Positions 3,159-50,791 of a stretch of DNA of 64,000 nt are shown here, piece after piece. Numbering within the stretch: the stretch's first letter is position 1; each line of letters begins with the position of its first letter. The notes beneath the pieces are model-generated. The model was not told the origin of the DNA and made no database searches. It worked only from the letters and a program-made list of their open reading frames with translations. The stretch is from Candidatus Omnitrophota bacterium (lineage in GTDB: Bacteria > Omnitrophota > Gorgyraeia > Zapsychrales > Zapsychraceae): contig JADFYE010000010.1 in assembly GCA_015233195.1 (NCBI GenBank), positions 9,869-73,868 of the forward strand, read 5' to 3'. The translations under genes were made by a program, and so were the position numbers.

Positions 3159-3195
3159 AAAAATCCTTTTTGTATTTTAATGATATTTAAATTTT

Positions 3196-3228
3196 TATAT
3201 GGGCACGAAGTATCGTGCCCCTACGCAT
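3196..3228. repeat. GGGCAC hairpin repeat, copy 1 (gggcacga-agta-tcgtgccc + ctacg)
   Basis: 8-bp perfect stem at 3201-3220. Near-identical copies at 18682-18714 and 48587-48618. Confidence 0.85.
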
Positions 3229-3249
3229 ATCAATACTCTATACTATTTA

Positions 3250-5136
3250 CTAAGCAATTTTAACGTTTTTTTTCAAGTTCTCAACGGATTCTTTTAATAA
3301 ACGACAATACAGATCAAACCCTATACTTGCGATATAACCATGCTGTTCCTGTCCTAAAAGATTACCTGCCCCACGCAATTGCATATCCTCAAACGCGATT
3401 TTAAAACCAGCACCCAGCTCGCAATATTTTTCAATTGCTTCAATCCTCGCTTCAGCTTCCTGACTCAGTGATCGATGTGGCGGAATCAGAAAATAAGCAT
3501 ACGCTTCTCTAGTAAACCGCCCGACCCTGCCGCGCAATTGATGCAAATCCGCTAAACCAAAATGATCAGCGCGGTTAATTATCAAAGTATTAGCATTAGG
3601 AATATCAATACCAGACTCAATGATTGTGGTCGAGATTAAAACATCAACCGAACCTTCCAGCACCTGAATCATAATATGCTCAAGTTCTTTAGCAGACATT
3701 TGACCATGCCCAATAGCTATTCTCGCTTGCGGAACTAAACGTTTAATAATCGCTCCAATATGACTAATATCTTCGACACGGTTATGTATAAAGAACACTT
3801 GACCATGCCGCTTCACTTCCCGCTCGATCGCCTCTTTTATCAGATCCTCGTCGAATTCTTTAACAAAAGTTTTTACCGGTAACCTTTGCTGCGGCGGCGT
3901 ACTGATTACTGACATATCCCTCGCCCCAACCAAAGACATATGCAAAGTGCGCGGTATAGGCGTCGCGCTCATTGTTAAAACATCTGCCAACAAACGAAAA
4001 TGTTTTAATTTTTCTTTTGCCTTAACCCCAAACCGCTGTTCCTCATCAATAATAATCAGCCCTAAATCTTTAAACGAAATATCTTTTGATAAAAGCCGAT
4101 GCGTTCCAATTACCAAATCCACTTTACCATCCGCGAGGTCAACCACAATTTTTTGTTGTTCAGCTTTTGTTTTAAACCGGCTTAACATTGCTACCTTAAC
4201 CGGAAAATTATCCATGCGTCTTGTAAAATTGTAATAATGCTGTTCTGCCAAAATCGTAGTCGGAACCAACACTGCCACTTGTTTATGGTCCATAACTGCT
4301 TTAAATACCGCGCGCATCGCCACTTCAGTTTTACCAAACCCTACGTCGCCGCACAATAAACGATCCATTGGATAAATGGATTCCATATCACGCTTAACAT
4401 CTTCAATCGCCTTGATTTGATCTAAAGTTTCTTCAAAAGGAAACCCCTTTTCAAATTCTTTTTGCCAATCAGTATCAACGCTAAATGCATGTCCACGTAA
4501 ACTCGCCCGTACTGCCTGAGTATGCAACAACTCTGCAGCCATACGCTGCAATCTTTTTTGAATTTGCTGTTTAACCCTTTTCCATTCTGGACTGCCTAAC
4601 TTATAAACTCGAGGAGGACGCTTAGTAAAACTTACATACTTTTGTATCAAGTGGATATCATGTTTAGGCACAAACAATTTATCCCCGCCCTGATACTCAA
4701 TAACAAAATGTTCTTTTACTTCTTTCTGAACCTCAATGGTTTGTAGCCCAATAAACTTACCAATACCATGATAATTATGGACTACATAATCACCCTGCTG
4801 TATATCAACAAAATTATTTAAAGGAATATCTTCAGAAAATACGACCTTCTTATCAGTCCGTGCATGCGGTAAGACCATTACTATCTTATGTTCCCAAATA
4901 GCTTTACCAGAACGGATATTAACACTCGCGATGCGGGAAATTTTTTCATCATCAAAATCAATGCGGATGGGACCGTCAAAATTCACAGGATATATTTCAA
5001 TGATCTCTCCCCTGTGGGCATACTCTCCCTCTTGCAAAGCGTGACGGACGTTTTGATATTTTAATGCGGATAAATTGTTCAAGACCACATCTAAAGCTAT
5101 GGTCTGACCAACAAATAACTCAAGCGACTGGAACAT
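3250..5136 (-). CDS. mfd: transcription-repair coupling factor, compact form (628 aa)
   Basis: CarD/RID-like 'GDYVVHNYHGIGKFIGL..DKLFVP'. Helicase motifs 'GDVGFGKTEVA', 'DEEQRFG', 'SATPIPRT' and 'QLRGRVGR'. TRG-like 'FEDMQLRGAGNLLGQEQHG'. Confidence 0.88.
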   Translation of the reverse strand: MFQSLELFVGQTIALDVVLNNLSALKYQNVRHALQEGEYAHRGEIIEIYPVNFDGPIRIDFDDEKISRIASVNIRSGKAIWEHKIVMVLPHARTDKKVVFSEDIPLNNFVDIQQGDYVVHNYHGIGKFIGLQTIEVQKEVKEHFVIEYQGGDKLFVPKHDIHLIQKYVSFTKRPPRVYKLGSPEWKRVKQQIQKRLQRMAAELLHTQAVRASLRGHAFSVDTDWQKEFEKGFPFEETLDQIKAIEDVKRDMESIYPMDRLLCGDVGFGKTEVAMRAVFKAVMDHKQVAVLVPTTILAEQHYYNFTRRMDNFPVKVAMLSRFKTKAEQQKIVVDLADGKVDLVIGTHRLLSKDISFKDLGLIIIDEEQRFGVKAKEKLKHFRLLADVLTMSATPIPRTLHMSLVGARDMSVISTPPQQRLPVKTFVKEFDEDLIKEAIEREVKRHGQVFFIHNRVEDISHIGAIIKRLVPQARIAIGHGQMSAKELEHIMIQVLEGSVDVLISTTIIESGIDIPNANTLIINRADHFGLADLHQLRGRVGRFTREAYAYFLIPPHRSLSQEAEARIEAIEKYCELGAGFKIAFEDMQLRGAGNLLGQEQHGYIASIGFDLYCRLLKESVENLKKNVKIA

Positions 5137-5142
5137 ATGTTT

Positions 5143-5184
5143 ATAAAAAAGGACAGCGCCCTAGTTAAAAATAGGACGCTGTCT
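5143..5184 (-). terminator. hairpin plus U-run downstream of secDF
   Basis: Minus strand reads gacagcg(t)ccta..tagg(g)cgctgtc followed by cttttttat. It ends only about 6 nt before the mfd ATG, so it may attenuate rather than terminate. Confidence 0.55.
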
Positions 5185-5198
5185 CTTCTTTAAAAAAA

Positions 5199-7412
5199 TT
5201 ATTTCTTCTTTTTTGCAGTATAATCTTCCCAAGCTATAACAATCGAAGATGCCACGAAAATGCTGGAATAAGTACCAAATATAAAACCTACCAATAAACA
5301 AAAAGCGAAAGAATTTAAAACTTCCCCGCCTTTAAAAAACAATGCCAAAACTACTAACGTAGTTGCAACTGATGTCAAAATCGTCCGGCTCAAGGTTTCA
5401 TTAACGCTGACATTAACTAACTGCGCTAAAGGCATTTTTTGTTTCTTAACCATGTTCTCCCGAATACGATCATAGACCACAATAGTATCATTGATCGAAT
5501 AACCTGCAATGGTCATAAGCGCGGTAACGACCAAAAGATCGATCTGGCGACCGCTCATCAACAACACCCCAAATGCCACGATAACGTCGTGGAACAAAGC
5601 AATAACACCGGCTGTAGCAAAATCAAAATGTTTAAATCTAAACCCGATGTAAATCAGAATGCCGACCATGGCAAGGACTATCGCCCAGACTGCAGCTTGA
5701 CGTAAAGCTTTACCAACTACTGGTCCAACTTTTTCAATACGCATAACTTCAAATTTATTATCACTGAAATCTTTTTTAAATATTCCTGACACTAAATTAA
5801 AAGTATCATCAGCAGTACGGATCATGACTGTTTCCGGATTCTTAGCAAATTGCTGAATTACCGCATCCTTAATATTAGCGTCTTTCAATGCTTTACGTAC
5901 CTGATCCGCATTCACTGCTTTTTCAAAACGATATTGCTGGATCTGTCCACCTGAAAAATCAATACCATAAGCAGCGTCACCTTTTTTGAATAACACGACC
6001 AGACTGGTTATAACCAATATGGCGGAAAAACAAATCATAATATAACGAAGCCCGACGAAATTAAAATTCGTATGCTTGAAAAAATTACGCATTTTCAAAG
6101 CTTTGATCCAACCGTTTTCCAAAGCCAAAGAGAATAAATCGCGGCTGACCAAAACTGAAGTGAACAAACTTGCAGCCAACCCGATCGACAAAGTAACTGC
6201 GAAACCTTTGATTGGTCCAGAACCGAACTGGAATAACATAAAAGCAGCAATAAAATTAGTAACGTGAGTATCAATGATGGTCGTCAAAGCGCGTTTAAAC
6301 CCCGCAGTAATCGCGGCGGGTAAAGGTCTGCCATTACTAATCTCCTCGCGAATACGTTCGTTAATAAGGATATTACCGTCAACTGCCATACCTAAAGTCA
6401 AAATAACACCAGCTATACCAGGTAAAGTTAAAGTTAATGGCGAGCCTGGCATTAATTTATTAACTAAACCCATAATCCCAAATAACATTACCAAATTTAT
6501 CAATAAAGCAATGTTAGCAATGATACCTGATTCCCAATAATAAAATAACATGAACAAAAATACTAAAACCCCGCCGATAACTGTAGCAGTGATCCCGTCA
6601 CGAATCGAATCTTTTCCAAGTAAAGGTCCGATAGTGCGTTCTTCTTCGATTTTCATAGGCGCTGGTAAAGCACCAGAACGAAGCGCTAAACTCAAAACTG
6701 ACGCTTCTTCAAAAGTAAAATTACCAGATATACTGGCAGTCCCGCCTAATATCGCTTCTTTAATATTAGGAGCTGAAAGAACTTCACCGTCCATAACAAT
6801 TGCTAATCTGCGGTTAACATTATTCTGAGTCAATATTCCGAAATTCTTTGCGCCTTCAGCATTAAATTTAAGCGAGATACTCGGCTGTCCAAAACTTTGT
6901 GAATTATAATCAACCCTGGCATCAGCTACAGTGTCGCCTTTTAAAGCTACAGCTTTATCTATCAAAACTGGAGGAGCTCCGCCTTCTTTTTTAACATACT
7001 TAATTTCATAACCTTCAGGGATGTTACCTTTTAATGCGTCACTTACTTTGGTAGGATCATCATTTACCAAATGAAATTCCAATTGCGCTACCCGTCCAAT
7101 AATTGATAAAGCTTTTTCACGGTCAGTTACGCCAGGCAACTGAACTAATATTTCATCTTCGCCCTGTCTTTGAATAACTGTTTCACCAACTCCCATACCA
7201 TCAATACGATTACGCAAAATTTCAATCGCCCGTAACACTGCGTCATTTTTTGCATTACCCTCTATCTTAGTAGTATCGACCTGCAAAACTAAATGCATAC
7301 CACCTTTAAGGTCTAAACCTAAGTTAATATGATCTTTTATCGGGAAAGTAAACAATAAAGATACAACAATTATGGCGCCTACCCATAAAAGCCGAACACG
7401 TAAATTCTTCAT
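5199..7412 (-). CDS. secDF: protein translocase subunit SecDF (fused)
   Basis: 737 aa. SecD-like periplasmic domain plus two 6-TM SecD/SecF modules ('GLDLKGGMHLVLQV', 'GIDFSGG', 'DTIVVYDRIREN'). Confidence 0.92.
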   Translation of the reverse strand: MKNLRVRLLWVGAIIVVSLLFTFPIKDHINLGLDLKGGMHLVLQVDTTKIEGNAKNDAVLRAIEILRNRIDGMGVGETVIQRQGEDEILVQLPGVTDREKALSIIGRVAQLEFHLVNDDPTKVSDALKGNIPEGYEIKYVKKEGGAPPVLIDKAVALKGDTVADARVDYNSQSFGQPSISLKFNAEGAKNFGILTQNNVNRRLAIVMDGEVLSAPNIKEAILGGTASISGNFTFEEASVLSLALRSGALPAPMKIEEERTIGPLLGKDSIRDGITATVIGGVLVFLFMLFYYWESGIIANIALLINLVMLFGIMGLVNKLMPGSPLTLTLPGIAGVILTLGMAVDGNILINERIREEISNGRPLPAAITAGFKRALTTIIDTHVTNFIAAFMLFQFGSGPIKGFAVTLSIGLAASLFTSVLVSRDLFSLALENGWIKALKMRNFFKHTNFNFVGLRYIMICFSAILVITSLVVLFKKGDAAYGIDFSGGQIQQYRFEKAVNADQVRKALKDANIKDAVIQQFAKNPETVMIRTADDTFNLVSGIFKKDFSDNKFEVMRIEKVGPVVGKALRQAAVWAIVLAMVGILIYIGFRFKHFDFATAGVIALFHDVIVAFGVLLMSGRQIDLLVVTALMTIAGYSINDTIVVYDRIRENMVKKQKMPLAQLVNVSVNETLSRTILTSVATTLVVLALFFKGGEVLNSFAFCLLVGFIFGTYSSIFVASSIVIAWEDYTAKKKK

Positions 7413-7742: not shown

Positions 7743-8000
7743 TTACGCTGCGACAGCTTTTTTATTTTTGTTGACCAGGGCTTTAACAGTATTCGTCATT
7801 CTAGCACCCTTTTTAAGCCATTTTTCAATCTTTTCATGACGAATAAGAACTTCTGCCGGCTTCTTGGTTGGATTATAATGCCCGAGGATTTCTAAATTTT
7901 TTGAATCACGGCTCTGATTCTTGCTCATTGCCACGATACGAAAACAATTAGATAATTTTGTGATTTTACCGATTTTTTGTAAACGAATACTTACTTCCAT
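7743..8000 (-). CDS. rpsP: 30S ribosomal protein S16
   Basis: 'IRLQKIGK...FRIVAM..SRDSK.LEILGHYNP' matches the S16 N-terminal pattern. AGGAGA SD. Confidence 0.9.
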   Translation of the reverse strand: MEVSIRLQKIGKITKLSNCFRIVAMSKNQSRDSKNLEILGHYNPTKKPAEVLIRHEKIEKWLKKGARMTNTVKALVNKNKKAVAA

Positions 8001-8047
8001 TAACTATTTCTCCTGTTTAATTTATATTGGTGATAAATAAGGTCTAA

Positions 8048-8076
8048 ATAATATATTATATATAAGCCATTGTCAA
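8048..8076 (-). promoter_or_regulatory. sigma70-like promoter for rpsP
   Basis: Minus strand TTGACA (8076-8071), 17-nt spacer, TATTAT (8053-8048). Confidence 0.55.
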
Positions 8077-10100
8077 TTTTTAATTTTTAACGTTTTTACT
8101 TTCTTCATTAAATCCAGTAATTCCGAATTATTCGGGTTCATTTTCAAGCCCTGATCAATAGCTTTTAAAGCTTCATCAAAATTGCCAATATGACCCATTA
8201 ATTTACCTATACCAACATAAGCAGGTACAAACGAAGCATCGACTTTAAGTGCTTTATAATAAAAATCAAAAGCTGGCATTAGCATTTTATGAAAAGCACA
8301 AATATTACCAGCTTTTACTAAAATATCTTTATCCGCAGATTCTTTACTTAGTTTCTCAATCCAAAAATTAATTTTATCCTGCTCATGATTTAAAAAAACC
8401 ATACGAAATATATCAAATTTTATATTTTCATCAGTGGGTTCTATTTCTGAAGCCTTTTCATAAAATTTTTGCGCATTAATAAAATCTTTATTTTTTTCAT
8501 AAGCAAGCGCTAAATTCATAGCCAATATTTTATTTTGCTGACCTAATGCATAAGCCCTGAAAAATTCTTTCACAGCTTCTTCAAATTTACCAGATTCACT
8601 ATAAGCATTAGCAAGATTATTCAAGATATCAGGCTGATTAGGAGACAACTCCAAAGCTTTTTTAAAATATTCAACCGCTAAGTTTAAATTGTTTTCTTTC
8701 GCAGCTAATACTCCTAAATTAGATAAATCTTTCCATCGATCAGATAATTTTACCTTAGCAGCCTTTTGAAATAAATCCTGAGCTTTAGAATAATTTTTTT
8801 CTTTAAAATAGGCTGCAGCCTGAAACGAATCTATTAGCTTAAATTTAGCAGTTGCAATTGTATTTCTCCAAAAATCACAATATACAACTTCATCACCCCA
8901 TATAGCATTCATAACAATGGACTGAGTTATTAATGCAAATATTATGCTTAATATCAAGCCGCCAACTAATATTTTTGAATATCGTCTAAACAAATACAAC
9001 AAAACCCAAGCTACAAAAACAAAAAAACCTATAGAATTAAAACAAAACCAATGCGGTTCCGTAACAATACCAAAACTACTGAATGATAAAGAAGCTAAAC
9101 CCGCAATAACAATTCCAAAAATAAAAACTACTGACAAAACCGCATATATTCTTTTATCATTAACTATAAATTTAAAAATAACTAAACATGCAATTAAAAT
9201 AAAAACCAATAAAACACTTATCAATAACCAAATATCTTGCTTTACTACATCCGTCGCCCATATCAATACAACACCTTTAGGATCCAACAACTGCCCCAAA
9301 TACCAAAACCACGCCTTCGATACAGAAGCTAACCACTGATACGGCGATATACCCATATTCTTATACGAACCTAATATCGAACCGCCTACGTTTGAAAATT
9401 TAGCCCGGAATAATAAAAGTATGCCTAATATTAAAAATAAAACAACCGTGTATTTTATGGTTTGTCGAATAGATAAACGATGAGCGATTAAACAAAGACC
9501 TGCCGCATAGAAAGGTAAAAAATATGCAGTTTCATGACATAAACAAGAAATTAAATACAACAACCCTGCACCTAATATTGAAACACGTTTTATGAATTTA
9601 TCAGAAGTTAATATGCTGCGATGGATTAACCATAAAGAAACTACCATTAATATAAACTGCAATATAAGAACATTAGCAGTTATATAATTCACAAAAATTC
9701 CGTTAATCGGATGGATACAAAACAAAACCGTGCTCAAAACTGCAAGCCAATAATCTTTGAGCAAATCAAATAAAAAAAAGAATATAAAAACACAGAGAAG
9801 AAAAAACAGCAGACAGTTTGTTATATGGTAACCTAGCGGATTATATTGAAACGCATTAAAATATAAAACCTGCATCACACTTCTAATCGGACGAAAATGA
9901 GCAGAAACATTATCCTCTGATAACCCATTCCCCGACGAAAAAGCAAAAAATAAATTCTTTATATTATGTGTGTTGTAATTCGAAACAAAATGATTCGCGT
10001 CATCCATCATGAACGCATTATTTAAACTATTAAAATAAGTCAAGAACACTAAAAAAAATAATACCACTAAAAAAAATATTTTATTTTTAGTTTCGATCAT
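8073..10100 (-). CDS. GT-C (PMT/TMTC-like) membrane glycosyltransferase with C-terminal TPR domain, paralog 1
   Basis: About 400 aa polytopic N-terminus with a loop-1 'MMDD' acidic motif, 'HPINGIFVNYITANV' and 'CHETAYFLPFY'. C-terminal TPR repeats. Confidence 0.7.
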   Translation of the reverse strand: MIETKNKIFFLVVLFFLVFLTYFNSLNNAFMMDDANHFVSNYNTHNIKNLFFAFSSGNGLSEDNVSAHFRPIRSVMQVLYFNAFQYNPLGYHITNCLLFFLLCVFIFFFLFDLLKDYWLAVLSTVLFCIHPINGIFVNYITANVLILQFILMVVSLWLIHRSILTSDKFIKRVSILGAGLLYLISCLCHETAYFLPFYAAGLCLIAHRLSIRQTIKYTVVLFLILGILLLFRAKFSNVGGSILGSYKNMGISPYQWLASVSKAWFWYLGQLLDPKGVVLIWATDVVKQDIWLLISVLLVFILIACLVIFKFIVNDKRIYAVLSVVFIFGIVIAGLASLSFSSFGIVTEPHWFCFNSIGFFVFVAWVLLYLFRRYSKILVGGLILSIIFALITQSIVMNAIWGDEVVYCDFWRNTIATAKFKLIDSFQAAAYFKEKNYSKAQDLFQKAAKVKLSDRWKDLSNLGVLAAKENNLNLAVEYFKKALELSPNQPDILNNLANAYSESGKFEEAVKEFFRAYALGQQNKILAMNLALAYEKNKDFINAQKFYEKASEIEPTDENIKFDIFRMVFLNHEQDKINFWIEKLSKESADKDILVKAGNICAFHKMLMPAFDFYYKALKVDASFVPAYVGIGKLMGHIGNFDEALKAIDQGLKMNPNNSELLDLMKKVKTLKIKN

Positions 10101-15510: not shown

Positions 15511-15938
15511 CCCTTCTACCCTTTGGGGAGAAGGTTAGGATGAGGGGATAATTTCTTCAATTTTATTTTCAATAACTTCGTAAACCCCATCCATGTTTAT
15601 CAGAACATCGTTATTTGCAAACCGCAAAATTTTTATGCCTTGAGATTCTAAATATTTACTTCGAGTTTTATCTTTACGCTCACCAATATCTTCATAATGC
15701 TGACCCCCATCTATTTCAATTGCTAATTTAATTGATGGAGCATAAAAATCGATTATGTAATTCCCGATTGAAAATTGTCTCCTAAATTTAATATTTTTAA
15801 TTTGTTGATTTCTAACATACAACCAAATTAATTTTTCAGCGTCTGTTTGCTCTTTACGAAGATCTCGACAATAATCAATATTCGGTCTTTTTGGCATTAC
15901 CCCTCACCCTAACCCTCTCCCCAGAGGCTGGAGAGGGG
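15511..15938 (-). mobile_element. DUF559 endonuclease gene bracketed by inverted ~38-nt hairpin repeats (cassette-like insertion in the his operon)
   Basis: Left arm 15511-15547 is the reverse complement of right arm 15900-15938 at most positions. The gene fills the interval almost exactly. The same repeat occurs solo elsewhere. Confidence 0.45.
15535..15897 (-). CDS. DUF559 (Vsr/restriction-endonuclease-fold) protein
   Basis: 'TDAEKLIW..VRN', 'FRRQFSIGNYIIDFY', 'LAIEIDGGQH' and 'GIKILRFANNDV' match the DUF559 pattern. Confidence 0.85.
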   Translation of the reverse strand: MPKRPNIDYCRDLRKEQTDAEKLIWLYVRNQQIKNIKFRRQFSIGNYIIDFYAPSIKLAIEIDGGQHYEDIGERKDKTRSKYLESQGIKILRFANNDVLINMDGVYEVIENKIEEIIPSS

Positions 15939-16567: not shown

Positions 16568-17179
16568 TTAATCAATTATACCTTTTGTCGATGGAACAGA
16601 ATCTGGTCTTGCTGGATTGATCCGGGTTGCTTCATGCAAAGCCAAACCCAAGGCTTTAAACGCAGCCTCTAAGTTGGTATGCAGATCTTCGCTAGTTCCC
16701 TCGATCTTTACGTTAACAGTAGCGCCGATATTATGCGCGAAAGATTCAAGGAAATGTTCAAGGTAAGCCATAGTATAGCCATCTTCATTTTTAATATTCA
16801 CTTTATCCATATTTTCAATGGTCAAAGTCAAATAACCCCGACCGCTAATATCAACCACTGCCCGTCCTAAAGTAGACTCCATCGGAGCATATGCAGAACC
16901 AAAACGTTTAATCCCTTGCATTTCACCCAAAGCTTTTTTAAACAATTTGCCTAACACTATACCAATATCTTCATTAGTATGATGGATATCAATTTCCAAA
17001 TCAGCTTTCTTCACTGCCAATTCCAAATCAAAACAAGCATGGAACGCGAACAGATCCAACATATGGTCGAGCAAACCAATATTAGTCTTGATCTTACTCT
17101 TGCCCCGCCCATCAATATTTATTGACGCGGTAATTTCAGTTTCTTTACTTTTTCGCTCCAGCTGCGCTTTTCGTTCCAT
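16568..17179 (-). CDS. hisB: imidazoleglycerol-phosphate dehydratase
   Basis: 'HMLD', 'HHTNEDIGI' and 'HNIGA/HFLESF' IGPD motifs. The track start 17227 is a GTG inside the repeat (translated 'PSPASGERARVRG'). ATG 17179 ('MERKAQLERK') is preferred. Confidence 0.92.
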   Translation of the reverse strand: MERKAQLERKSKETEITASINIDGRGKSKIKTNIGLLDHMLDLFAFHACFDLELAVKKADLEIDIHHTNEDIGIVLGKLFKKALGEMQGIKRFGSAYAPMESTLGRAVVDISGRGYLTLTIENMDKVNIKNEDGYTMAYLEHFLESFAHNIGATVNVKIEGTSEDLHTNLEAAFKALGLALHEATRINPARPDSVPSTKGIID

Positions 17180-17183
17180 ATTT

Positions 17184-17221
17184 CCCCTCACCCTTGCCCT
17201 CTCCCCAGAGGCTGGAGAGGG
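17184..17221. repeat. 38-nt CU/GA hairpin repeat (cccctcaccc..ccctctcc..ggagaggg)
   Basis: One of 7 copies: 15511-15547, 15900-15938, 17184-17221, 21835-21871, 21897-21933, 41684-41722 and 50543-50575. Confidence 0.9.
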
Positions 17222-17246
17222 AATCACTTTAATTTATTATTTAAAA

Positions 17247-17423
17247 ACAAATTTTTAAAAATTAAAAGGCGCAGGTATTTAAGCGGACGTTGATAATTCG
17301 AGCGGGCACGGTTTGGACGAGTTTTATCGTCCAAGAGCGAGAATTATCTTCGAGCGTAGTTTAGTCTCGCAGGGACTAGCAAGCGTTCCGCGAAATACCG
17401 AAGACTTTTATCTAAAAATTTGT
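17247..17423. repeat. ~170-nt branched-hairpin intergenic element, copy 1 (candidate structured RNA or MITE)
   Basis: Terminal inverted repeats acaaattttt/aaaaatttgt. Nested helices aaaag.c/g.ctttt, ggtattt/aaatacc, gcgga/tccgc and gataattc/gaattatc. Two tip hairpins. Confidence 0.85.
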
Positions 17424-18662: not shown

Positions 18663-18681
18663 ATATTTGCTCGTTTAATTT

Positions 18682-18714
18682 TATTTGGGCACGAAGTATC
18701 GTGCCCCTACGAAT
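18682..18714. repeat. GGGCAC hairpin repeat, copy 2
   Basis: gggcacgaagtatcgtgccc at 18687-18706. The conserved 'cctacg' tail contains the alaS stop codon. Confidence 0.85.
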
Positions 18715-21376
18715 TTTTTCTATCGTCTATCTTCTTCTTTGTTATTTGATAAGCAGCGTCAACAGCTCTATCTAAATTTTTTGTATCCTTGCTTCCAGCC
18801 TGCGCCATTTGTGGTCTGCCGCCGCCTTTACCACTAAATAAATCAGCTGCGTCTTTAATAAGCTCATTCGCATTTAAGCCTTGTTTCACCAGATCATCTG
18901 AAACTGTTATCAAAATTGTAGCACTATCTACTGATCTGGCTCCTAAAATCGATACTGACGACTTAACTTTTTGTTTTATCAAATCTGATAACTTACGTAG
19001 AATATTTATATCAACGTCTTCTAAAACCTGCACAACAATCTTACTGTCTTTAACCTGCGTTCCTTTTTGAATAATCTGATCTATGCCAGATTTTACCGCC
19101 TCAAACTTAAATTGTTCTAACTGTTTTTCAAGATCCTTAACCCGAGCGGATTGAGCAATAGTTTTATCTGCCAATTCTGTTACCGGACATTTAAATAAAT
19201 CAGCCAATTTATCTAACGTGCTTTCCTGCTCTTCAACAAACATAACTGCGTCCATACCAGTCTTAGCTTCAATCCGACGGATGCCCTGTGCGATCGCACT
19301 CTCTCCCACAATTTTAAATAAACCAATTTCACCTGTTGAATCCAAATGTGTACCACCGCAAAATTCTTTTGAATAATCACCAATAGAAATAACTCTGACT
19401 ACATCGCCGTATTTTTCCGCAAAAAATGCTAAAGCACCAGTTGATTTAGCCTCTGTAATAGGCAAGAATTCTTTGGTAACGCAGTCACAAGCTAAAATAT
19501 ATTCATTCACTCTGCGTTCAACTTTAAGTAAGTCAGCTCTTGTAATAGCTTGGTGATGTGTAAAATCCAAACGTAAACGATCATCGGAAACATACGAACC
19601 TTGCTGTTGAACATGCGTGCCTAAAATTTCCCTCAAAGCAGCTTGCAAAAGATGAGTTGCAGTATGATTACGCATAACTGCCCAGCGTCGATCAATATCA
19701 ATTTCAGCTGCCACTAAATCACCAACCTCGAACTTTCCTTTTTCTACCACACCCAAATGCAAAAACACTTCTGAAATTTTCTGAGTATCAGTGATCTTTA
19801 AAATATTTTCGCCTTTACTAATATATCCAACATCGCCAATCTGCCCGCCGGATTCAGCATAAAAAGGTGATCGATCTAAAACTATTTTTGCCTGATCCCC
19901 TTGTTTAATTTCATGAACTGGTTTATTATCCTTAAATATTCTCAAAATCGAATCTGTGGTCTTAAAATGTTTATAACCAGTAAAATCCGTCTTAGGAATA
20001 TTTAGCTCTAAAGTATTATTAGTAAATACATCGCCAGTCATTTTGCTCGATGCCCTGGATTTTTCCTGCTGCTCTGCCATTAAATGATCAAACTCGTTTT
20101 TTACCGAAGAAAAAAATGAGCTGTCATTTCCAAACACTTTAATCAAAGGCTCTTTCATGGTCTCTAAAGTCAAACCATACGTGTCACGGAAATTAAACAA
20201 TATTACTCCTACTTCTTTGTGCGCCAAATTTACAGCTAATCCCTTTTCTTTAATTTTAACCAATTCTTTTTCAAATTCCGGTATGCGTTCTTTCCTTAAC
20301 TTTATATAACCAGCCTCAATATTTTTAACTAAATTCTCAATGTCTTTATGCTTAGCTTTTATCTCAGGATATTGATCTGCCATAGCTTCGATCACAGAAG
20401 GTATTAATTTATAAACACAAGGTTCATGCTTACCGCTGCGGATTGCTATATCAGAGATAGTGATAATCAATTTTTTCATGATATAACCACGTCCTTCATT
20501 AGAAGGAATTACCCCGTCTGAAATACCAAAAGTAACTGCCCGGATATGATCAGCCATAACCCGTTTTTCCCGCAAAGACAATTTCGCGTTTACATTCTGA
20601 TCAATTGATTTTAAAATCGGTTCAAACAAAGTAGTATCAAAATTATTATGTTTACCCTGCATTAAAGCAGTTAAACGTTCCAAGCCCATACCTGTATCAA
20701 TGTTCTTATTGGGTAATGGTTCCAAAACCCCTCCGTCTTTACGCTCAAACTGTGTAAATACCAAATTCCAAATTTCACAAAAACGTCCCATTTCATCGTC
20801 TGGGTCTTTGGGCGCGTTTTTAATTCCTTTTGTTTCCCATTCATAATCAAAAAATATTTCAGAACAAGGACCACACGGACCATTCGGACCATTAAGCCTA
20901 GCATTAGACGGCCAAAAATTACTTTTATCGCCTAAACGAAAAAGTTTTATATCTTTAATACCTACTTCTTTAAGCCAAATTTGTTCAGCTTCTTTGTCTT
21001 CTTTATTTACTGATACCCATAATTTTTCCGAAGGAATGCCTAATTCTTTGGTCAAGAATTCCCACGCCCAGAAAATCGCCTCGCGTTTAAAATAATCTCC
21101 AAAAGAAAAATTACCCAACATCTCGAAAAAAGTATGATGAAAGTCGGTCTTACCTACCTCGTCCAGATCATCAGTACGCAAACATTTTTGAGCAGTAGCT
21201 GCTCGTCTGAAATCAGTAATATCCCCTAGAAATTGGCGTTTGAATTGCTGCATACCTGCAGTAGTGAACAAAACAGTTGGGTCATCTTTAGGCACTAATG
21301 AATCGCTTGCAATAACCTTATGCCCTTTAGAAGCAAAAAAATTCAAATATTTTCTGCGGATTTCGCTAGTCGTCAT
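18707..21376 (-). CDS. alaS: alanine--tRNA ligase
   Basis: 889 aa. 'FTTAGM..FK', 'QKC.R..D...VG', editing-domain 'HTATHLL' and 'CGGTH'. C-terminal DHHA1-like region. Confidence 0.96.
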   Translation of the reverse strand: MTTSEIRRKYLNFFASKGHKVIASDSLVPKDDPTVLFTTAGMQQFKRQFLGDITDFRRAATAQKCLRTDDLDEVGKTDFHHTFFEMLGNFSFGDYFKREAIFWAWEFLTKELGIPSEKLWVSVNKEDKEAEQIWLKEVGIKDIKLFRLGDKSNFWPSNARLNGPNGPCGPCSEIFFDYEWETKGIKNAPKDPDDEMGRFCEIWNLVFTQFERKDGGVLEPLPNKNIDTGMGLERLTALMQGKHNNFDTTLFEPILKSIDQNVNAKLSLREKRVMADHIRAVTFGISDGVIPSNEGRGYIMKKLIITISDIAIRSGKHEPCVYKLIPSVIEAMADQYPEIKAKHKDIENLVKNIEAGYIKLRKERIPEFEKELVKIKEKGLAVNLAHKEVGVILFNFRDTYGLTLETMKEPLIKVFGNDSSFFSSVKNEFDHLMAEQQEKSRASSKMTGDVFTNNTLELNIPKTDFTGYKHFKTTDSILRIFKDNKPVHEIKQGDQAKIVLDRSPFYAESGGQIGDVGYISKGENILKITDTQKISEVFLHLGVVEKGKFEVGDLVAAEIDIDRRWAVMRNHTATHLLQAALREILGTHVQQQGSYVSDDRLRLDFTHHQAITRADLLKVERRVNEYILACDCVTKEFLPITEAKSTGALAFFAEKYGDVVRVISIGDYSKEFCGGTHLDSTGEIGLFKIVGESAIAQGIRRIEAKTGMDAVMFVEEQESTLDKLADLFKCPVTELADKTIAQSARVKDLEKQLEQFKFEAVKSGIDQIIQKGTQVKDSKIVVQVLEDVDINILRKLSDLIKQKVKSSVSILGARSVDSATILITVSDDLVKQGLNANELIKDAADLFSGKGGGRPQMAQAGSKDTKNLDRAVDAAYQITKKKIDDRKNS

Positions 21377-21828
21377 ATTTGGTCAATTACTTTCTTGATC
21401 GACGAGAAACCAAAACCCCGTCGTAATAAAAAATTATAAATACGTTGTTTGAATTTATCATTATCGGAGTGAACGCCATGCTGCAGTTTACGGTCTACTA
21501 ATGAACGGATCATTGCAAGTTCATCGTATTCCTCGCTGGCAAAGCCTAAAGTCTTTTTTAAAATTTCTTTATCAATACCCTTATCGAGCAATTCTCGTCT
21601 GATCCGGTTTATGCCAAAAGGCTTATTTAAACGCGAATTCACCCATGCCTTAGCAAAATCCTCATCATTGACCAAACCGGTGTTCTTAAAATATTCAATA
21701 GTCTGGTCTATAACTGATAGATCAAATTTTTTCTCTTTAAGTTTTGCCTTTAACTCGTATTCACTCCGCGGCCGATAATTCAAGAGCCGGTAAACTGCGT
21801 TTTTTGCTGACGATAAATCATTTTTCAT
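21373..21828 (-). CDS. recX: recombination regulator RecX
   Basis: 151 aa helical repeat protein ('YLNYRPRSEYEL..KL', 'FGINRIRRELLDKGI') between recA and alaS. Confidence 0.8.
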   Translation of the reverse strand: MKNDLSSAKNAVYRLLNYRPRSEYELKAKLKEKKFDLSVIDQTIEYFKNTGLVNDEDFAKAWVNSRLNKPFGINRIRRELLDKGIDKEILKKTLGFASEEYDELAMIRSLVDRKLQHGVHSDNDKFKQRIYNFLLRRGFGFSSIKKVIDQI

Positions 21829-21834
21829 TTTTAT

Positions 21835-21933
21835 CTCTTCTCCCCTCCGGGGAGAAGATTAAGATGAGGGGTTTTAATAATTTTTATTTTTTAATTCCCC
21901 TCACCCTGCCCTCTCCCCATAGGTTGGAGAGGG
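21835..21933. repeat. inverted pair of the 38-nt hairpin repeat with a 25-nt AT-only spacer (gene-less counterpart of the DUF559 cassette arms)
   Basis: 21835-21871 (ctcttctcccctccggggagaagattaagatgagggg) and 21897-21933 (cccctcaccctgccctctccccataggttggagaggg) have the same relative orientation as the arms at 15511 and 15900. Confidence 0.85.
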
Positions 21934-21934
21934 T

Positions 21935-39194: not shown

Positions 39195-41676
39195 TCGTTG
39201 TAATTACTTTATTATTAATCCAATCCAATCGCTCTTGCGCGAATTTTTTCTCCTCTACATTATAACTAAGCACTTTCTGATAAATCTGTTTTGCTTTAAT
39301 CCACTCATCCTGGTCTTCAAATATTCTCGCAACTCTAAGGTACGCCTTAACTGCCCATAAAGTCTGATCAATATAAAGATATGGAATCTTCAAATATTCG
39401 TCGAGAGCCTTATCCGTGTTATTCATCAACTCATAATCGTCTGCCAGACTAAACCTGATCTCAGCGTCAGGCGTGTGGCTCTGTCCTTTTACTGATTTCA
39501 AAGCATTTTCATAATATTGTGCTGCCTTTTGCTGATCATTCTGGCTCTTATATATTTCCGCGATTTTAAATAACGCATCTTTTGCAAAACTTGGGACTTT
39601 ATCCAGCATAGTCTTATACGTAGCAATCGCTGCATCAGGATCCATTTTTTGGGATAGAATTTCAGCTATCGCGCTCTTAGCTTTAACAAATATTTCCGGA
39701 GAAACTGTCTCAGAAATATTTTTAAACGACTCAATCGCTGCCTTATAGTCATTATTAGCTTTATATGCCTGACCTAAAGAATAATATACTTCGACCAGCC
39801 TCTTATTACCGGGGAAACTTTTAATGAATTCATTATAATGACTGATCGCGTAATTATAATCTCCGGCTTCCAAATAATGGTCGCCCAGCCAAATTAAAGC
39901 TTCTTGTCCAGCGTCGGAATCATGATATTTTGTTGCAACATTCCTAAATCTTTTCAAAGCTTCATTAATATTTCCGTTTTTATATAAACACTTTGCGATA
40001 TGCAATTCTGAATTTTTTACAATATTAGAATCACTCGGATACTCCTTTATTATTTTCTGAAAGACTGCTGCAGCTTCCGTGTATTTAGCTAAATTAAAAT
40101 TTGATAATCCTAATATATAATTCGCTTCTGAACGAAACTCGCTGCTATCCGTAGATTCTTTAAGAAAAGCACTCGCCTGCTCCATAGCGGTCTGCCATTG
40201 TTCCTGTTTAAAATATGCGACTGCAAGATAATATTTAGCGTCTTTTAAATATTTACTTTTTGGAAAGTTGGCTTGTAAAGTCTGTAAAGATAAAGTAGCA
40301 GCTTCGATCTTATTTTGTTTTAATAGGGTTACTGCCTGACGATATTGAACATAATCCGTATATGGACCAGCCGGAAATTCACCTAATATCTTGTCATAAA
40401 CTTCTACTGCTTGGTCCAACTGTCCGGCTTCCTGATACGCGTCTCCAATCTGGGTCATAGCGCTGATACGAATCGTATTATTATCAGTCTTACTTTGAAT
40501 GGTCTCAAAAGTATGAATTGAAAGATCCAGCGCCCCAGCTTTCATGTAACTCCACCCTAACGCGAAATAAGCTTTCTCCACAATATCAGGATAATCAGCG
40601 GACGCTTCATATTTATTTATTATCGCCCGGTAATCTTTTATTGCTGCATCATATTTCTGTTCTTGATAATAAGTGTTGCCTCTGCCTAATAATGCTTCGG
40701 GTACTCTCGGGCTATCTTGATATTTATTGACTATCTCAGAATAAGCGGACAAAGCCTTATCCACATTATTAGTCTCAGAATACAAAGATGCCAATCCCAA
40801 ATAAACATCATCTGCAGGTATACTCTTACTCTGCGCAAAACTTAAAGCATCGTTAAAATTTTTTTCTGAAAGATCATATTTCCCCAACTTTAAATAACAC
40901 CAACCCAAGCTTACCTTAGACGCAAAAATAGTCTTATTATCATACGATAAGCTCGCGGATTTTGCATAATACCCTACCGCATCCAACGGCTGGTTAAGAT
41001 AATAAAATGATTCTCCAATATAAAAATATGCCTCAGGATGTTTGACTGAATCCGGATAAGTATTTATATATTTTATGAAATGTTCCGTAGTTTTTTCATA
41101 ATTTTTTTGGGTATATAATATCTCACCTATTTTAAAAGCAGCGTCTTCAGCTAACTGATTGTCTGGAAATTTTTTTAAAATTTTTTCAAATATATCCTGA
41201 GCCTTCGTATAATCATTCTGAACAAAATATGTCCAGCCTAGAGAATAATAAGCCTGCGGCGCGTAAATCGAATCCGGATACGCGTCAATAACTTGTTTAT
41301 ACATTTCTTCAGCCTGTTTATAGTCCGAACCTTTTAAATACGTCTCACCCAGCCAGAATAAAGTAGCATCTTTAAATTGGGAGTATTGACTGGTTTCTTT
41401 AAAATAATTGAATGCCTTTAAATATTCACTTTTGAAAAAATAACATTGTCCTAATAAAAGTTTTGACTCAACTGACTTCGTGGTCTGAGGATAGTCCCGC
41501 ATTAATTGTTCGATATACCGGATGGATATATCATAGAACCCGTCGTCAAAAGCCTTTTGCGCTACTAAAAATAATTCTTCATCGCCTTCGGCAAAGGCGT
41601 CACGCGCGGTAAAACTAACTGCGGTTAAAACGACAAAAATAAAAACCAATATTATTCTTAAAAACTTCTTATTCAT
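39184..41676 (-). CDS. large secreted TPR protein (YbgF/BamD-type repeats)
   Basis: Signal peptide, then repeated '..YP(D/K)S....EA.Y.LG..Y' units. The track start 41691 is the GTG inside the repeat. ATG 41676 ('MNKKFLRI') is preferred. Confidence 0.75.
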   Translation of the reverse strand: MNKKFLRIILVFIFVVLTAVSFTARDAFAEGDEELFLVAQKAFDDGFYDISIRYIEQLMRDYPQTTKSVESKLLLGQCYFFKSEYLKAFNYFKETSQYSQFKDATLFWLGETYLKGSDYKQAEEMYKQVIDAYPDSIYAPQAYYSLGWTYFVQNDYTKAQDIFEKILKKFPDNQLAEDAAFKIGEILYTQKNYEKTTEHFIKYINTYPDSVKHPEAYFYIGESFYYLNQPLDAVGYYAKSASLSYDNKTIFASKVSLGWCYLKLGKYDLSEKNFNDALSFAQSKSIPADDVYLGLASLYSETNNVDKALSAYSEIVNKYQDSPRVPEALLGRGNTYYQEQKYDAAIKDYRAIINKYEASADYPDIVEKAYFALGWSYMKAGALDLSIHTFETIQSKTDNNTIRISAMTQIGDAYQEAGQLDQAVEVYDKILGEFPAGPYTDYVQYRQAVTLLKQNKIEAATLSLQTLQANFPKSKYLKDAKYYLAVAYFKQEQWQTAMEQASAFLKESTDSSEFRSEANYILGLSNFNLAKYTEAAAVFQKIIKEYPSDSNIVKNSELHIAKCLYKNGNINEALKRFRNVATKYHDSDAGQEALIWLGDHYLEAGDYNYAISHYNEFIKSFPGNKRLVEVYYSLGQAYKANNDYKAAIESFKNISETVSPEIFVKAKSAIAEILSQKMDPDAAIATYKTMLDKVPSFAKDALFKIAEIYKSQNDQQKAAQYYENALKSVKGQSHTPDAEIRFSLADDYELMNNTDKALDEYLKIPYLYIDQTLWAVKAYLRVARIFEDQDEWIKAKQIYQKVLSYNVEEKKFAQERLDWINNKVITTNGK

Positions 41677-41683
41677 ATAACAA

Positions 41684-41722
41684 CCCCTCACCCTAACCCT
41701 CTCCCCATAGGCTGGAGAGGGG
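41684..41722. repeat. 38-nt CU/GA hairpin repeat
   Basis: cccctcaccctaaccctctccccataggctggagagggg. On the minus strand it ends GAGGGG, 7 nt before the TPR gene ATG. Confidence 0.9.
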
Positions 41723-41773
41723 AAAATTTAGTTTTTCTATTTTAAATTCACAGATAAAATTAAATATATATAA

Positions 41774-41948
41774 GCAAATTTTTTATATTAAAAGACGCAG
41801 GTATTTCAGCGGACGTTGATAATTCGAGCAGGCACGGTTCGTACATGCTTCACCGTACGAGAGCGAGAATTATCGTCGAGCGCAGTTAGACTAGCCGGGG
41901 CTAACCAGCGTTCCGCAAAATACCTAAGTCTTTTAACCAAAAATTTGC
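41774..41948. repeat. ~170-nt branched-hairpin intergenic element, copy 2
   Basis: TIR gcaaattttt/aaaaatttgc. P1 aaaagac/gtctttt. Tip hairpins tcgtac/gtacga and gttag/ctaac. Confidence 0.85.
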
Positions 41949-44854: not shown

Positions 44855-45157
44855 TTACTTTTTCTTAGCTTTTTTTGCTGCTTTTTTTGCCGGTTTTTTT
44901 GCTGCTTTTTTTGCCGGTTTTTTTGACTTTTTTTTGCCGCCTCTTACCATTGCTGCGCAGGAGATATCGCCATCTTTATCGATGAAATACAAGAAACCTG
45001 CTTGTTTTTTCAAACCGACTTTAGTGACTTTTTTAGGTTTTCCGCCTTTTTCTCCGCCGCGTGCCATCTTCGCGCAGGAAATATCTCCGTCTTTATCGAC
45101 GAAATATAAAAATCCTGCTTCCTTCTTGATACCTACTTTAGCTGCTTTCTTTGACAT
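44855..45157 (-). CDS. small lysine-rich protein: two ~38-aa repeats plus histone-H1-like KKPAKKAA tail
   Basis: 'KVG(I/L)KK(E/Q)AGFLYF(V/I)DKDGDISCA.M.RGG' occurs twice. Tail is 'KKPAKKAAKKPAKKAAKKAKKK'. AAAGGGGA SD and its own terminator. Confidence 0.7.
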   Translation of the reverse strand: MSKKAAKVGIKKEAGFLYFVDKDGDISCAKMARGGEKGGKPKKVTKVGLKKQAGFLYFIDKDGDISCAAMVRGGKKKSKKPAKKAAKKPAKKAAKKAKKK

Positions 45158-48582: not shown

Positions 48583-48586
48583 TTTT

Positions 48587-48618
48587 TATTTGGGCACAAA
48601 TTATTGTGCCCCTACGAA
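48587..48618. repeat. GGGCAC hairpin repeat, copy 3
   Basis: gggcacaa-atta-ttgtgccc at 48592-48611. It carries a compensated G-C to A-T change relative to copies 1 and 2. Confidence 0.85.
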
Positions 48619-48638
48619 TAACTATATTCTTTTACAAT

Positions 48639-49813: not shown

Positions 49814-50536
49814 CTATTCTAATCCCAACACTTGTTTCATTGTAAACAGCCCGTTTTTCTTATCCATGACAAATTTAGCTGCAGCCAGACCGCCTTTCGC
49901 GAACATGCCGCGGTTTTTCGCGTTATGGATCAGCGTCAATGTATCTTCCGGAGTCTCAAACGTGATCTTATGATATCCGACGACTTCGCCTTCACGAATT
50001 GATTCAACTGGCTTGACTTTTAAATTAGAAAATTTCTCCGCGATTTGAAGCATGGTCTTAGCCGTCCCTGACGGCGCGTCTTTTTTATGGATATGATGCG
50101 TTTCTGTAATCTTGATGTCATCAATTCCGACTAGCATTTTCGATGCCAACTCAATCATCTTGAATAAAACATTAACGCCGATTGACATGTTCGAAGAAAA
50201 TACGATCGGGATTTTTTTAGACGCTGATTCGATTTTTTTTACCTGCTCCTCATTTAATCCTGTTGTTCCAATGACCATGCGCACCCCGTATTTCAAACAT
50301 ACTTCTAAATTCTGCATCGTAGCCTCAGGAGATGTGAATTCGATCAGTACGTCGCAACCCTTCAACGCATTGTTATCCGCCGAAGGCATAACACCGCAGA
50401 CACTTTCTTTGATCTTGGGATGCGTCGCAATTTCAAAAAGCGTTTTGATATGGAACCTTGGATCTTTTTTTGCTGAATCACAAATCGCCTGACCCACCCG
50501 ACCGTGACACCCGCTAATTGCTAATTTAATGCTCAT
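49814..50536 (-). CDS. dapB: 4-hydroxy-tetrahydrodipicolinate reductase
   Basis: 'KLAISGCHGRVG', 'VIGTTG' and 'E.HH..K.DAPSGTA'. The track start 50566 lies in the repeat. ATG 50536 is preferred. Confidence 0.93.
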   Translation of the reverse strand: MSIKLAISGCHGRVGQAICDSAKKDPRFHIKTLFEIATHPKIKESVCGVMPSADNNALKGCDVLIEFTSPEATMQNLEVCLKYGVRMVIGTTGLNEEQVKKIESASKKIPIVFSSNMSIGVNVLFKMIELASKMLVGIDDIKITETHHIHKKDAPSGTAKTMLQIAEKFSNLKVKPVESIREGEVVGYHKITFETPEDTLTLIHNAKNRGMFAKGGLAAAKFVMDKKNGLFTMKQVLGLE

Positions 50537-50542
50537 AAAATT

Positions 50543-50575
50543 CCCCTCACCTAACCTCTCCCACAAAGGGAGAGG
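50543..50575. repeat. 38-nt CU/GA hairpin repeat (shorter variant)
   Basis: cccctcacctaacctctcccacaaagggagagg. Its minus-strand GAGGGG lies 6 nt before the dapB ATG. Confidence 0.85.
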
Positions 50576-50622
50576 AAAATTAATCTATCTTTATTTTAAA
50601 ATTCGTAAACGACATTGTACGA

Positions 50623-50791
50623 ACAAATTTTTTAAATAAAAGTCGAAGGTATTTAAGCGGACATTGGTAATTCGAGCGGGCACGGTTCGTACGCCAAAAG
50701 CGTACGAGAGCGAGAATTACCGCGAGCGTAGTTTAACACGCTGGGTTAAACAAGCGTTCCGCGAAATACCGAAGACTTTTAAAAAAATTTG
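50623..50791. repeat. ~170-nt branched-hairpin intergenic element, copy 3
   Basis: P1 aaaagtc/gactttt. P4 ggtaattc/gaattacc, a double compensatory change relative to copies 1 and 2. Tip hairpins tcgtacgc/gcgtacga and gtttaac/gttaaac. Confidence 0.85.

Follow-up and report, generated by a model that had tools for sequence, protein, structure and literature searches.

The 64-kb stretch of DNA analysed here (the window) comes from a Candidatus Omnitrophota genome of 36.5% GC and sets the scope of all statements on that source genome. Three of its gene junctions, which by Pfam assignment are hisD|hisB (IGPD), uvrA|TPR and dapA|dapB, contain the same succession of parts when read along the minus strand: first an imperfect palindrome of approximately 170 nt (the rod), then an AT-rich spacer, next a hairpin made of CCCTCTCC/GGAGAGGG, and finally GGGTGAGGGG with an ATG after it. 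These parts, their order and their placement had been described in an earlier note and were all present at the three loci, with the start codons 4-7 nt further on. The gap from GAGGGG to the ATG is 4 nt for hisB, 7 nt for the TPR gene and 6 nt for dapB, and the starts of IGPD/HisB, the TPR protein and DapB were confirmed as genuine, DapB being 100% identical to P0001. In a three-way alignment, the composite stretches had a mean column identity of 81%, contributed mostly by the rod and the hairpin. The earlier note had read each composite as one module, which could be a portable expression cassette; we found instead that two elements make it up, of which BoxC/PIT is known and the rod undescribed.

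Judged by its sequence, the hairpin together with GAGGGG is the known BoxC/PIT/TM(ECO) intrastrand-triplex motif, and GAGGGG, which had been counted as a separate part, is the third block of this three-block element. A 46-nt query over the hairpin unit matched, by blastn, 5416 of 5426 complete E. coli genomes with ~93% identity across 96% of its length, at a median of 17 places per genome; among the matches listed, none overlaps an annotated feature, and one lies between gabT and gabP. According to PMC4666352 (Holder et al. 2015), the BoxC of the 1990s, the PIT (potential intrastrand triplex) element and TM(ECO) are the same motif, for which Bachellier et al. and Hoyne et al. 2000 are further sources, and its consensus is CCCTC[T/G]CCC - loop - GGGAGAGGG - TTA or CCG - GGGTGAGGG(G). 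Membership was judged by three consecutive blocks of at least 7-9 nt each, with short loops between them: pyrimidines first, then their purine complement and then another run of purines. All five copies in the window have these blocks (pyrimidine CCCTCTCC, purine GGGGAGAGGG, second purine GGGTGAGGGG), in a layout that agrees with Table 1 of PMC4666352, and every one of the five copies in these 64 kb lies in a gene junction. The pattern CCTCTCC-N3-12-GGAGAGG had five matches in the window, in a single orientation, against 0 expected in shuffles.

All copies are on the minus strand. The one before hisB (17184-17221) reads CCCTCTCC-loop-GGGGAGAGGG-CAA-GGGTGAGGGG and ends 4 nt before the ATG at 17179, and the one before the TPR gene (41684-41722) is of type A, with TTA as its second loop, and ends 7 nt before the ATG at 41676. 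Before dapB (50543-50575), the blocks are shortened to CCTCTCCC-TTTGT-GGGAGAGG-TTA-GGTGAGGGG and end 6 nt before the ATG at 50536. The hairpin had been presented as tied to the rod, yet two copies are rod-less: one at 15900-15938, between hisH and a DUF559 gene in the his operon, which ends 2 nt before the ATG at 15897, and one at 21897-21933 in the recA|recX junction, directly after the recA stop, with the recX ATG at 21828. The type A second loop TTA is found in the copies at 15900, 41684 and 50543, CAA in that at 17184 and CA in that at 21897.

The recA|recX junction (21829-21934) holds three stacked hairpins, of which BoxC is the first. In the second, a CCCCTCA further downstream is the partner of BoxC block 3 (TGAGGGG), an arrangement reminiscent of inverted BoxC pairs in E. 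coli, and the third is a separate pyrimidine/purine hairpin, CTTCTCCCC-GGA-GGGGAGAAG, located 8 nt before the recX ATG. The DUF559 gene (15535-15897), which the other rod-less copy precedes, has a Vsr-like endonuclease fold and, lying within the his operon after hisH, looks like an inserted selfish gene.

In E. coli MG1655, BoxC is always intergenic, shows no strand bias or link to gene function and lies 10-310 nt from open reading frames (ORFs), and BoxC loci are more variable between strains than usual (PMC4666352). Earlier work cited there found neither promoter nor terminator activity for the E. coli element, whose sequence is described in the same paper as forming an intrastrand triplex, a non-B DNA, in vitro, by circular dichroism and nuclear magnetic resonance; the purine tract has also been read as a G-quadruplex/hairpin switch in a preprint (bioRxiv 10.1101/032615). 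The window copies resemble the E. coli ones in having three blocks of nearly the same sequence, CCCTCTCC(C)-loop-GGGAGAGGG-TTA-GGGTGAGGG(G), in being intergenic and multi-copy, and in occasionally pairing with an inverted partial copy (recA|recX). They differ in that all five are sense to the genes, whereas E. coli BoxC has no strand bias, in that four of the five end 2-7 nt before a start codon rather than 10-310 nt away, in a first loop lengthened to 8 nt in all but one of them, and in their host, an Omnitrophota genome of 36.5% GC. A motif with 93% identity to E. coli BoxC in a candidate phylum adds to the unexplained conservation of BoxC across phyla. To our knowledge, the question of BoxC function has been without an answer since the 1990s.

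The rod is an undescribed element of 155-175 nt found across Omnitrophota, and a well-supported structured motif. A forward-strand MAFFT alignment (A2) misaligned its outer helices, with RNAalifold returning 14 pairs; the results given here rest on an alignment of the other strand and then on a covariance model, R1. This model finds exactly three rods in the window, at 97-110 bits, the next best match scoring 9.5 bits. Copy 1, between hisD and hisB, is a ~176-nt imperfect palindrome with a three-way junction at 17248-17423 (R1 match 17259-17414, 110.3 bits); copy 2, between uvrA and the TPR gene, lies at 41775-41947 (R1 match 41785-41939, 97.1 bits), and copy 3, between dapA and dapB, at 50624-50791 (R1 match 50633-50785, 106.3 bits), all given on the plus strand. 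These spans include the terminal inverted repeat CAAATTTTT...AAAAATTTG, which extends beyond the R1 match.

On the folding strand, RNAalifold yielded 35 pairs, 22 of them with compensatory changes. In the R1 alignment, 96.4% of the cells are paired, and two-sided changes, over 348 cells, occur in 28 of the 35 pairs; none of 500 shuffles reached the level of the rod, and slid controls were 36-51% paired. In its architecture, the rod combines a long closing helix and a three-way junction with a variable hairpin, whose CACGCUGG loop is conserved, and with an arm that bears an internal loop. The sequence of the closing helix is wholly different between lineages, from the AT-rich AAAAG.../...CTTTT of the window to TTAGCGGG.../...CCCGCTAA elsewhere. 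The internal loop is asymmetric and conserved, 5'-UUC|GAGCGGGCACGGUU...AGAGCGA|GAA-3', with tandem G.A/A.G beside two G-C pairs, one of which is compensated to A-U in a diverged copy (L141). The AGCG junction strands are likewise conserved, and GAGCG forms a direct repeat on both arms within the conserved core. We found no covariation in support of a pseudoknot between the CACGCUGG loop and the AGCG strands.

The two strands of the rod are not equivalent. When the fold stability of both was calculated, the type found on the plus strand of the window was the more stable in 54 of 55 copies, by a mean of 11.5 kcal/mol, and the paired cells of the alignment hold 175 G-U against 28 A-C, which indicates that one strand is the folding strand. 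In the window this is the plus strand, antisense to hisB, the TPR gene and dapB, but the rod on the sense strand also has a fold, of -41 to -58 kcal/mol, and in folds of whole junctions the rod folds independently of BoxC.

Comparison with Rfam 15 returned no match for the rod in the window at gathering thresholds, for copy 3 at E<=10 or for three further copies, of the consensus type (L158, L104 and L131), at E<=1, and no tRNA or tmRNA was found. The weak Rfam matches that did appear (SpF22, STnc630, microRNAs) are located on the spacer, BoxC or elsewhere and were put down to chance. A small ORF in the rod was rejected, as its ATG is not conserved in the window copies; 6S, signal recognition particle, RNase P and Y RNA were dismissed because of the copy number of the rod and because Rfam gave no match. 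With 78 copies, 28 covarying pairs and no Rfam match, the rod is a candidate for Rfam-type curation and for structure probing.

Outside the window, the distribution of the rod was established in steps of increasing specificity. The 17-mer AACCGTGCCNGCTCGAA of the conserved core, scanned against one genome per species, gave 116 loci, mostly chance matches in high-GC genomes; 12 of these were confirmed as rods by nhmmer, all in Candidatus Omnitrophota metagenome-assembled genomes. A more specific two-block pattern identified 51 metagenome loci with a rod, and R1 gave 78 matches in 65 sources, including diverged copies without the search pattern and several inverted neighbouring pairs, so that the rod occurs in 75 places besides the window. 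String searches found no published account of its core sequence, and the literature on Omnitrophota and repeats offered nothing specific. Plasmids, phages and IMG/VR contained no match. Neighbouring genes are mostly housekeeping: 150 ORFs next to rods fall into 180 Pfam families, and no transposase, reverse transcriptase, Cas protein, integrase or RAYT is among the 25 commonest of them. The orientation of the rod to flanking ORFs is (-,-) in 20 cases, (+,+) in 18 and mixed in 10, and the folding strand is the locally G-rich one in 27 cases and the C-rich one in 27. Within the window, the plus strand has a strong and uniform GC skew (-0.16 to -0.26) and the minus strand carries 58 of the 60 genes of our junction table; the window thus lies within one replichore, and orientations relative to transcription and to replication are inseparable from the window alone.

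Across ~60 copies, no sequence is conserved beyond the palindrome on either side, and the 25-nt flanks of 60 distinct rods show neither a direct repeat, as a target-site duplication would leave, nor a conserved target. Near-identical rods within one metagenome (L119, L121, L123, L129 and L155) differ at few positions while their upstream flanks have no blastn match to one another, and other rods sit at contig ends (L096, L102); repeats of this type break Omnitrophota assemblies and enlarge intergenic regions at operon junctions. In these habits the rod is like the dispersed structure-dependent repeats ERIC, Correia and REPIN, and not like a directional cis-regulatory RNA or a small RNA (sRNA) gene with its own promoter. 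A riboswitch or leader was rejected on its random orientation and unrelated downstream genes. Retron non-coding RNA, IS110 bridge RNA and TnpB/IscB omega RNA were rejected as well: no reverse transcriptase, recombinase or nuclease is among the 25 commonest neighbour families, and the internal loop is conserved and not variable.

Some rods form adjacent inverted pairs, head-to-head or tail-to-tail and in part with common boundary bases (L009, 4597-4755/4806-4972; L144, 480-651/648-816; L166, 1926-2094/2129-2263), resembling the inverted pairs of BoxC and of the REPs in BIMEs. A second, unrelated imperfect palindrome family of ~190 nt, AAGCTTTCCGGCTTTTGCTGGAGGCAC...GTGCAAGGAATTACG...CGTAAACCGCAGCACACGGCGAAAATCTTCGTGCC...CCGGAAAGCTT, lies directly on the gene-sense 3' side of the rod at L002 (~5930-6120), L122, L118, L143, L049, L163, L145 and L140. 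Its presence beside rods in several Omnitrophota genomes indicates that nests of repeats are common in the phylum.

Both elements appear to be insertions. Four syntenic relatives (L168, L170, L171 and L172), whose DapB is 62-69% identical, keep the gene order, but their dapA/dapB gap is -4 to 15 nt against 310 nt in the window, and their uvrA/TPR gap 28-104 nt against 278 nt. Neither the rod nor BoxC was found in these four relatives, and on this sequence comparison both would be lineage-specific insertions. Since the junctions are tight in the relatives, any insert had to preserve translation of the downstream gene.

The closest relative, L168, has widened other junctions, in its arg/lys operon, to 150-350 nt (1161-1310, 2497-2688 and 5109-5330; also 3605-3937, 7955-8303 and 19885-19971); these are tight in the window, L170 and L172. 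Its inserts open right after the stop codon with a heptamer array of (GTATGTR)n or GTAACNGAGT-type units and close before the next ribosome-binding site (RBS) with the reverse-complement array, with an AT-rich core between the two, a different route to a junction-spanning stem.

The two parts of the composite are separable, BoxC standing alone at two sites of the window and in E. coli. The BoxC motif is absent from 167 other loci searched, of which 63 bear a rod. The spacers, measured after the terminal repeat AAAAATTTG had been assigned to the rod and listed here on the minus strand, are 26 nt (17222-17247), 52 nt (41723-41774) and 48 nt (50576-50623) long, and they are no more similar to one another than composition-matched shuffles (p = 0.12-0.40). 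The linker string which copies 2 and 3 had been noted to share does exist, though it has to be set against this result, and the extra hairpin reported in the third linker is present, as a local 6-bp TTCGTA-N10-TACGAA at 50602-50623. With variable spacing and independent families, the evidence favours two separate elements. Of the idea of one module at operon junctions, the exact placement at junctions was borne out, but not the unity.

Co-location of rods with BoxC is nevertheless non-random. The window has 59 gene junctions, of which 23 have gaps of 25 nt or more; BoxC is present in five and a rod in three, and all three rods fall within the five BoxC-bearing junctions; the hypergeometric probability, computed by hand from the junction table, is 10/32509 = 3e-4 over all 59 junctions and 10/1771 = 6e-3 over the 23 gapped ones.

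We then consider the expression signals that the composite had been proposed to carry. A search for sigma-70 promoters by their -35/-10 hexamers gave a single promoter-like site in each module, where shuffles led one to expect 0.6-1.1, at inconsistent positions and on inconsistent strands, which does not support an internal promoter. No terminator-like site (GC-rich stem and T-run) was found in the three modules by a scan limited to at most 20 stem pairs and loops of 3-8 nt, which cannot score the rod closing helix enclosing the rest of the element. A terminator or processing site in the rod also sits poorly with its orientation to genes (20 versus 18) and with an antisense folding strand; a directional part of this kind should have an orientation preference, and the rod has none. 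The RBS fared better. No Shine-Dalgarno-like sequence other than BoxC block 3 (GGGTGAGGGG) is present; this block lies 4-7 nt before the three ATGs and 2 nt before that of the fourth, rod-less site. In predicted folds of the junction mRNA, however, the pyrimidine block pairs with either purine block, leaving the Shine-Dalgarno-like block only partly unpaired, with a predicted unpaired probability of 0.29-0.55 at the three rod junctions and of 32% at hisH|DUF559; at the recX site, the Shine-Dalgarno window is located in a different hairpin and is predicted to be 6% unpaired. In these models block 3 is plausible as an RBS donor, and it might instead attenuate translation. A purine block at ribosome-binding distance from four starts thus gives BoxC a concrete, testable candidate role, as RBS donor or translational attenuator. 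Of the portable cassette, then, an RBS-like end and placement at junctions were retained, whereas its unity, its promoter and its terminator or processing site found no support.

Among known repeat classes, the nearest are ERIC/IRU of enterobacteria and Correia/NEMIS of Neisseria, imperfect palindromes resembling miniature inverted-repeat transposable elements (MITEs) and co-transcribed with flanking genes. Like them, the rod is a 100-170-nt imperfect palindrome, dispersed between genes and at operon junctions in either orientation, that folds as a long hairpin when transcribed and whose presence varies among relatives; it matches the ERIC/Correia type, taken as a functional class and not as a homology family, in each of these respects, and is absent from the four syntenic relatives. 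It has no sequence similarity to ERIC or Correia, and differs from them by its three-way junction, conserved asymmetric internal loop and freely covarying terminal helices, by the lack of a target-site duplication and by a strongly strand-asymmetric fold. MITEs show the reverse pattern, with conserved termini. The rod does have terminal inverted repeats (TTAGCGGG...CCCGCTAA in most copies, CAAATTTTT...AAAAATTTG in the window), yet these covary and are not conserved; no target-site duplication was seen in the 25-nt flanks of 60 copies, and no autonomous relative emerged, either as a transposase among the 25 commonest families in the 150 neighbouring ORFs or as a plasmid, phage or IMG/VR match. 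Family sizes of ERIC and NEMIS are listed in PMC2267715.

REP/REPIN elements are GTAG- or CGTC-tagged palindromes mobilised by RAYT transposases (PMC3733652). The rod shares with them a structure-dependent, non-autonomous, hairpin-forming and intergenically clustered character. A REP was defined here as a palindrome of 20-40 nt, one end of which bears a conserved GTAG or CGTC, and a REPIN as an inverted doublet of REPs; the rod has no such tag, is not an inverted doublet and is 4-5 times longer than a REP, and no RAYT was seen near rods.

A separate and genuine GTAG-tagged REP family is present in the window at 3192-3239, 18678-18725 and 48583-48630. On the minus strand it reads CGTAGGGGCACG-loop-CGTGCCC-AAATAAAA, each copy occupying a short junction immediately ahead of a start codon, and L168 carries similar GTAG hairpins, for example GCGTAGGGGCGATCGCCCCTAC.

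Integron attC sites are imperfect palindromes of 57-141 nt or more, found between genes, which conserve structure over sequence and fold on one strand. In all of this they resemble the rod. We looked for R''/L'' and L'/R' boxes (RYYYAAC...GTTRRRY), a cassette array and a nearby IntI; the rod lacks the R''/R' (RYYYAAC/GTTRRRY) boxes, occurs in both orientations and is flanked by core housekeeping genes in conserved synteny and not by cassettes, with no integrase among the commonest neighbour families.

With moderate confidence, we favour the explanation that each "module" consists of two unrelated interspersed repeats nested in formerly tight operon junctions of this Omnitrophota lineage. One, BoxC/PIT, is a known motif able to form a hairpin, an intrastrand triplex or a G-quadruplex; many bacteria carry it, and local genomic instability has been associated with it. 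The other, the rod, would spread or persist as a dispersed, structure-dependent, non-autonomous repeat, like ERIC, Correia and REPIN. Their co-location could have several causes. Few junctions may tolerate insertions; BoxC sites may be prone to rearrangement, given the instability of such loci reported in PMC4666352; and an insert between these tightly packed and possibly translationally coupled genes may survive only if the downstream gene keeps an RBS, which BoxC block 3 would supply. Any effects of the sense rod on mRNA processing, stability or read-through would then be secondary consequences and not those of a designed cassette.

Several points weigh against nested, independent repeats. 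Neither the flanks nor the neighbours of the rod gave a target-site duplication, a conserved target or an autonomous partner, and its mobility is therefore read only from dispersal and from presence or absence among relatives. The rods of the window are only ~81% alike, and would thus be old or constrained. The conserved internal loop and three-way junction of the rod exceed what is typical of a MITE and suggest that the rod has a specific activity or binding partner. Each of the three rods has a BoxC beside it, always with order and orientation alike (p ~3e-4 to 6e-3), which could equally mean that the composite formed once and was then copied, or that it was kept for function; a single origin followed by duplication may thus account for the three loci. 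Spacers 2 and 3 have GAATTT(T)AAAATA in common, a string that is unremarkable in an AT-rich context. Finally, the view of the source genome spans 64 kb and three rod copies.

The constancy of the three junctions also speaks for the proposal that rod, spacer and BoxC act as one functional, portable intercistronic cassette, in which the sense rod would be a processing site (e.g. for RNase III) or a partial terminator, BoxC would cap and protect the new 5' end, and block 3 would serve as RBS, making expression of the downstream cistron independent. Order, orientation and placement are alike, the pairing is non-random, start codons follow the purine block by 4-7 nt, the sense rod folds at -41 to -58 kcal/mol independently of BoxC, tight ancestral junctions would have needed a self-contained RBS, and a relative has other stem-forming inserts at its operon junctions. 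We nonetheless regard such a cassette as improbable: the rod and BoxC are independent families, their spacing varies across non-homologous spacers, promoter and terminator signals are not above chance, and PIT/BoxC has neither activity in the E. coli work cited in PMC4666352. Moreover, rod orientation is random across the family, the strand on which structure is preserved is antisense in the window, and block 3 is predicted to be partly sequestered. Somewhat less unlikely, though still far from probable, is that the rod is a new Omnitrophota-specific structured class, an RNA or single-stranded DNA (ssDNA) of ~165 nt with a three-way junction, whose invariant GAGCGGGCACGGUU/AGAGCGA loop, AGCG strands and CACGCUGG loop would be a specific protein-binding or catalytic core. 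In that case the rod would be more than selfish DNA and, together with BoxC, would have been exapted in this lineage as an intercistronic control point at operon junctions.

The conserved features of the rod bear on two further explanations. One is that the rod encodes a structured non-coding RNA present in multiple copies, or else a cis-antisense RNA, transcribed from the plus strand of the window by a promoter in the upstream AT-rich spacer, with an internal loop that binds a protein or has an activity, and that BoxC is incidental. The strand asymmetry in favour of the plus strand, covariation through all helices, the conserved asymmetric loop, junction strands and hairpin loop, the compensated G-C to A-U change in the core (L141) and the absence of the rod from Rfam would all fit. 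The same ~60 copies, however, conserve nothing outside the palindrome, which leaves no shared promoter or terminator; the three spacers contain no consistently placed sigma-70-like promoter; and high copy number, abutting inverted pairs and assembly breaks (L096, L102) are features of repeats and not of sRNA genes, which makes this RNA doubtful, more so than the cassette. The remaining explanation, to which we assign the lowest probability, has the rod act at the DNA level, as an extruded or single-stranded structure or as a duplex site, targeted by a recombinase, an HUH enzyme or a nucleoid protein (compare REP/RAYT, BIME-IHF/gyrase or attC-like sites), with BoxC nearby through a shared non-B DNA behaviour. 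A strand-specific fold that has no preferred orientation to transcription would suit a DNA site, as would the GAGCG direct repeat on both arms of the conserved core, the GTAG-type REPs in the same genome and the non-B DNA that PMC4666352 describes BoxC as forming in vitro. Against such a site, GTAG/CGTC tags and R'/R'' boxes are missing from the rod ends, the 25 commonest neighbour families include no integrase, RAYT or transposase, and no cassette-array organisation was seen. HUH and ssDNA systems often show a replication-strand bias, but the rod has none (27 versus 27).

Apart from these elements, the window contains a 12-nt tandem periodicity (TTTTTTGCTGCT/TTTTTTGCCGGT) at 44859-44930, inside a small minus-strand ORF (44855-45157), which probably encodes a lysine/alanine-rich repeat, such as a histone-like or nucleoid-protein-like tail.

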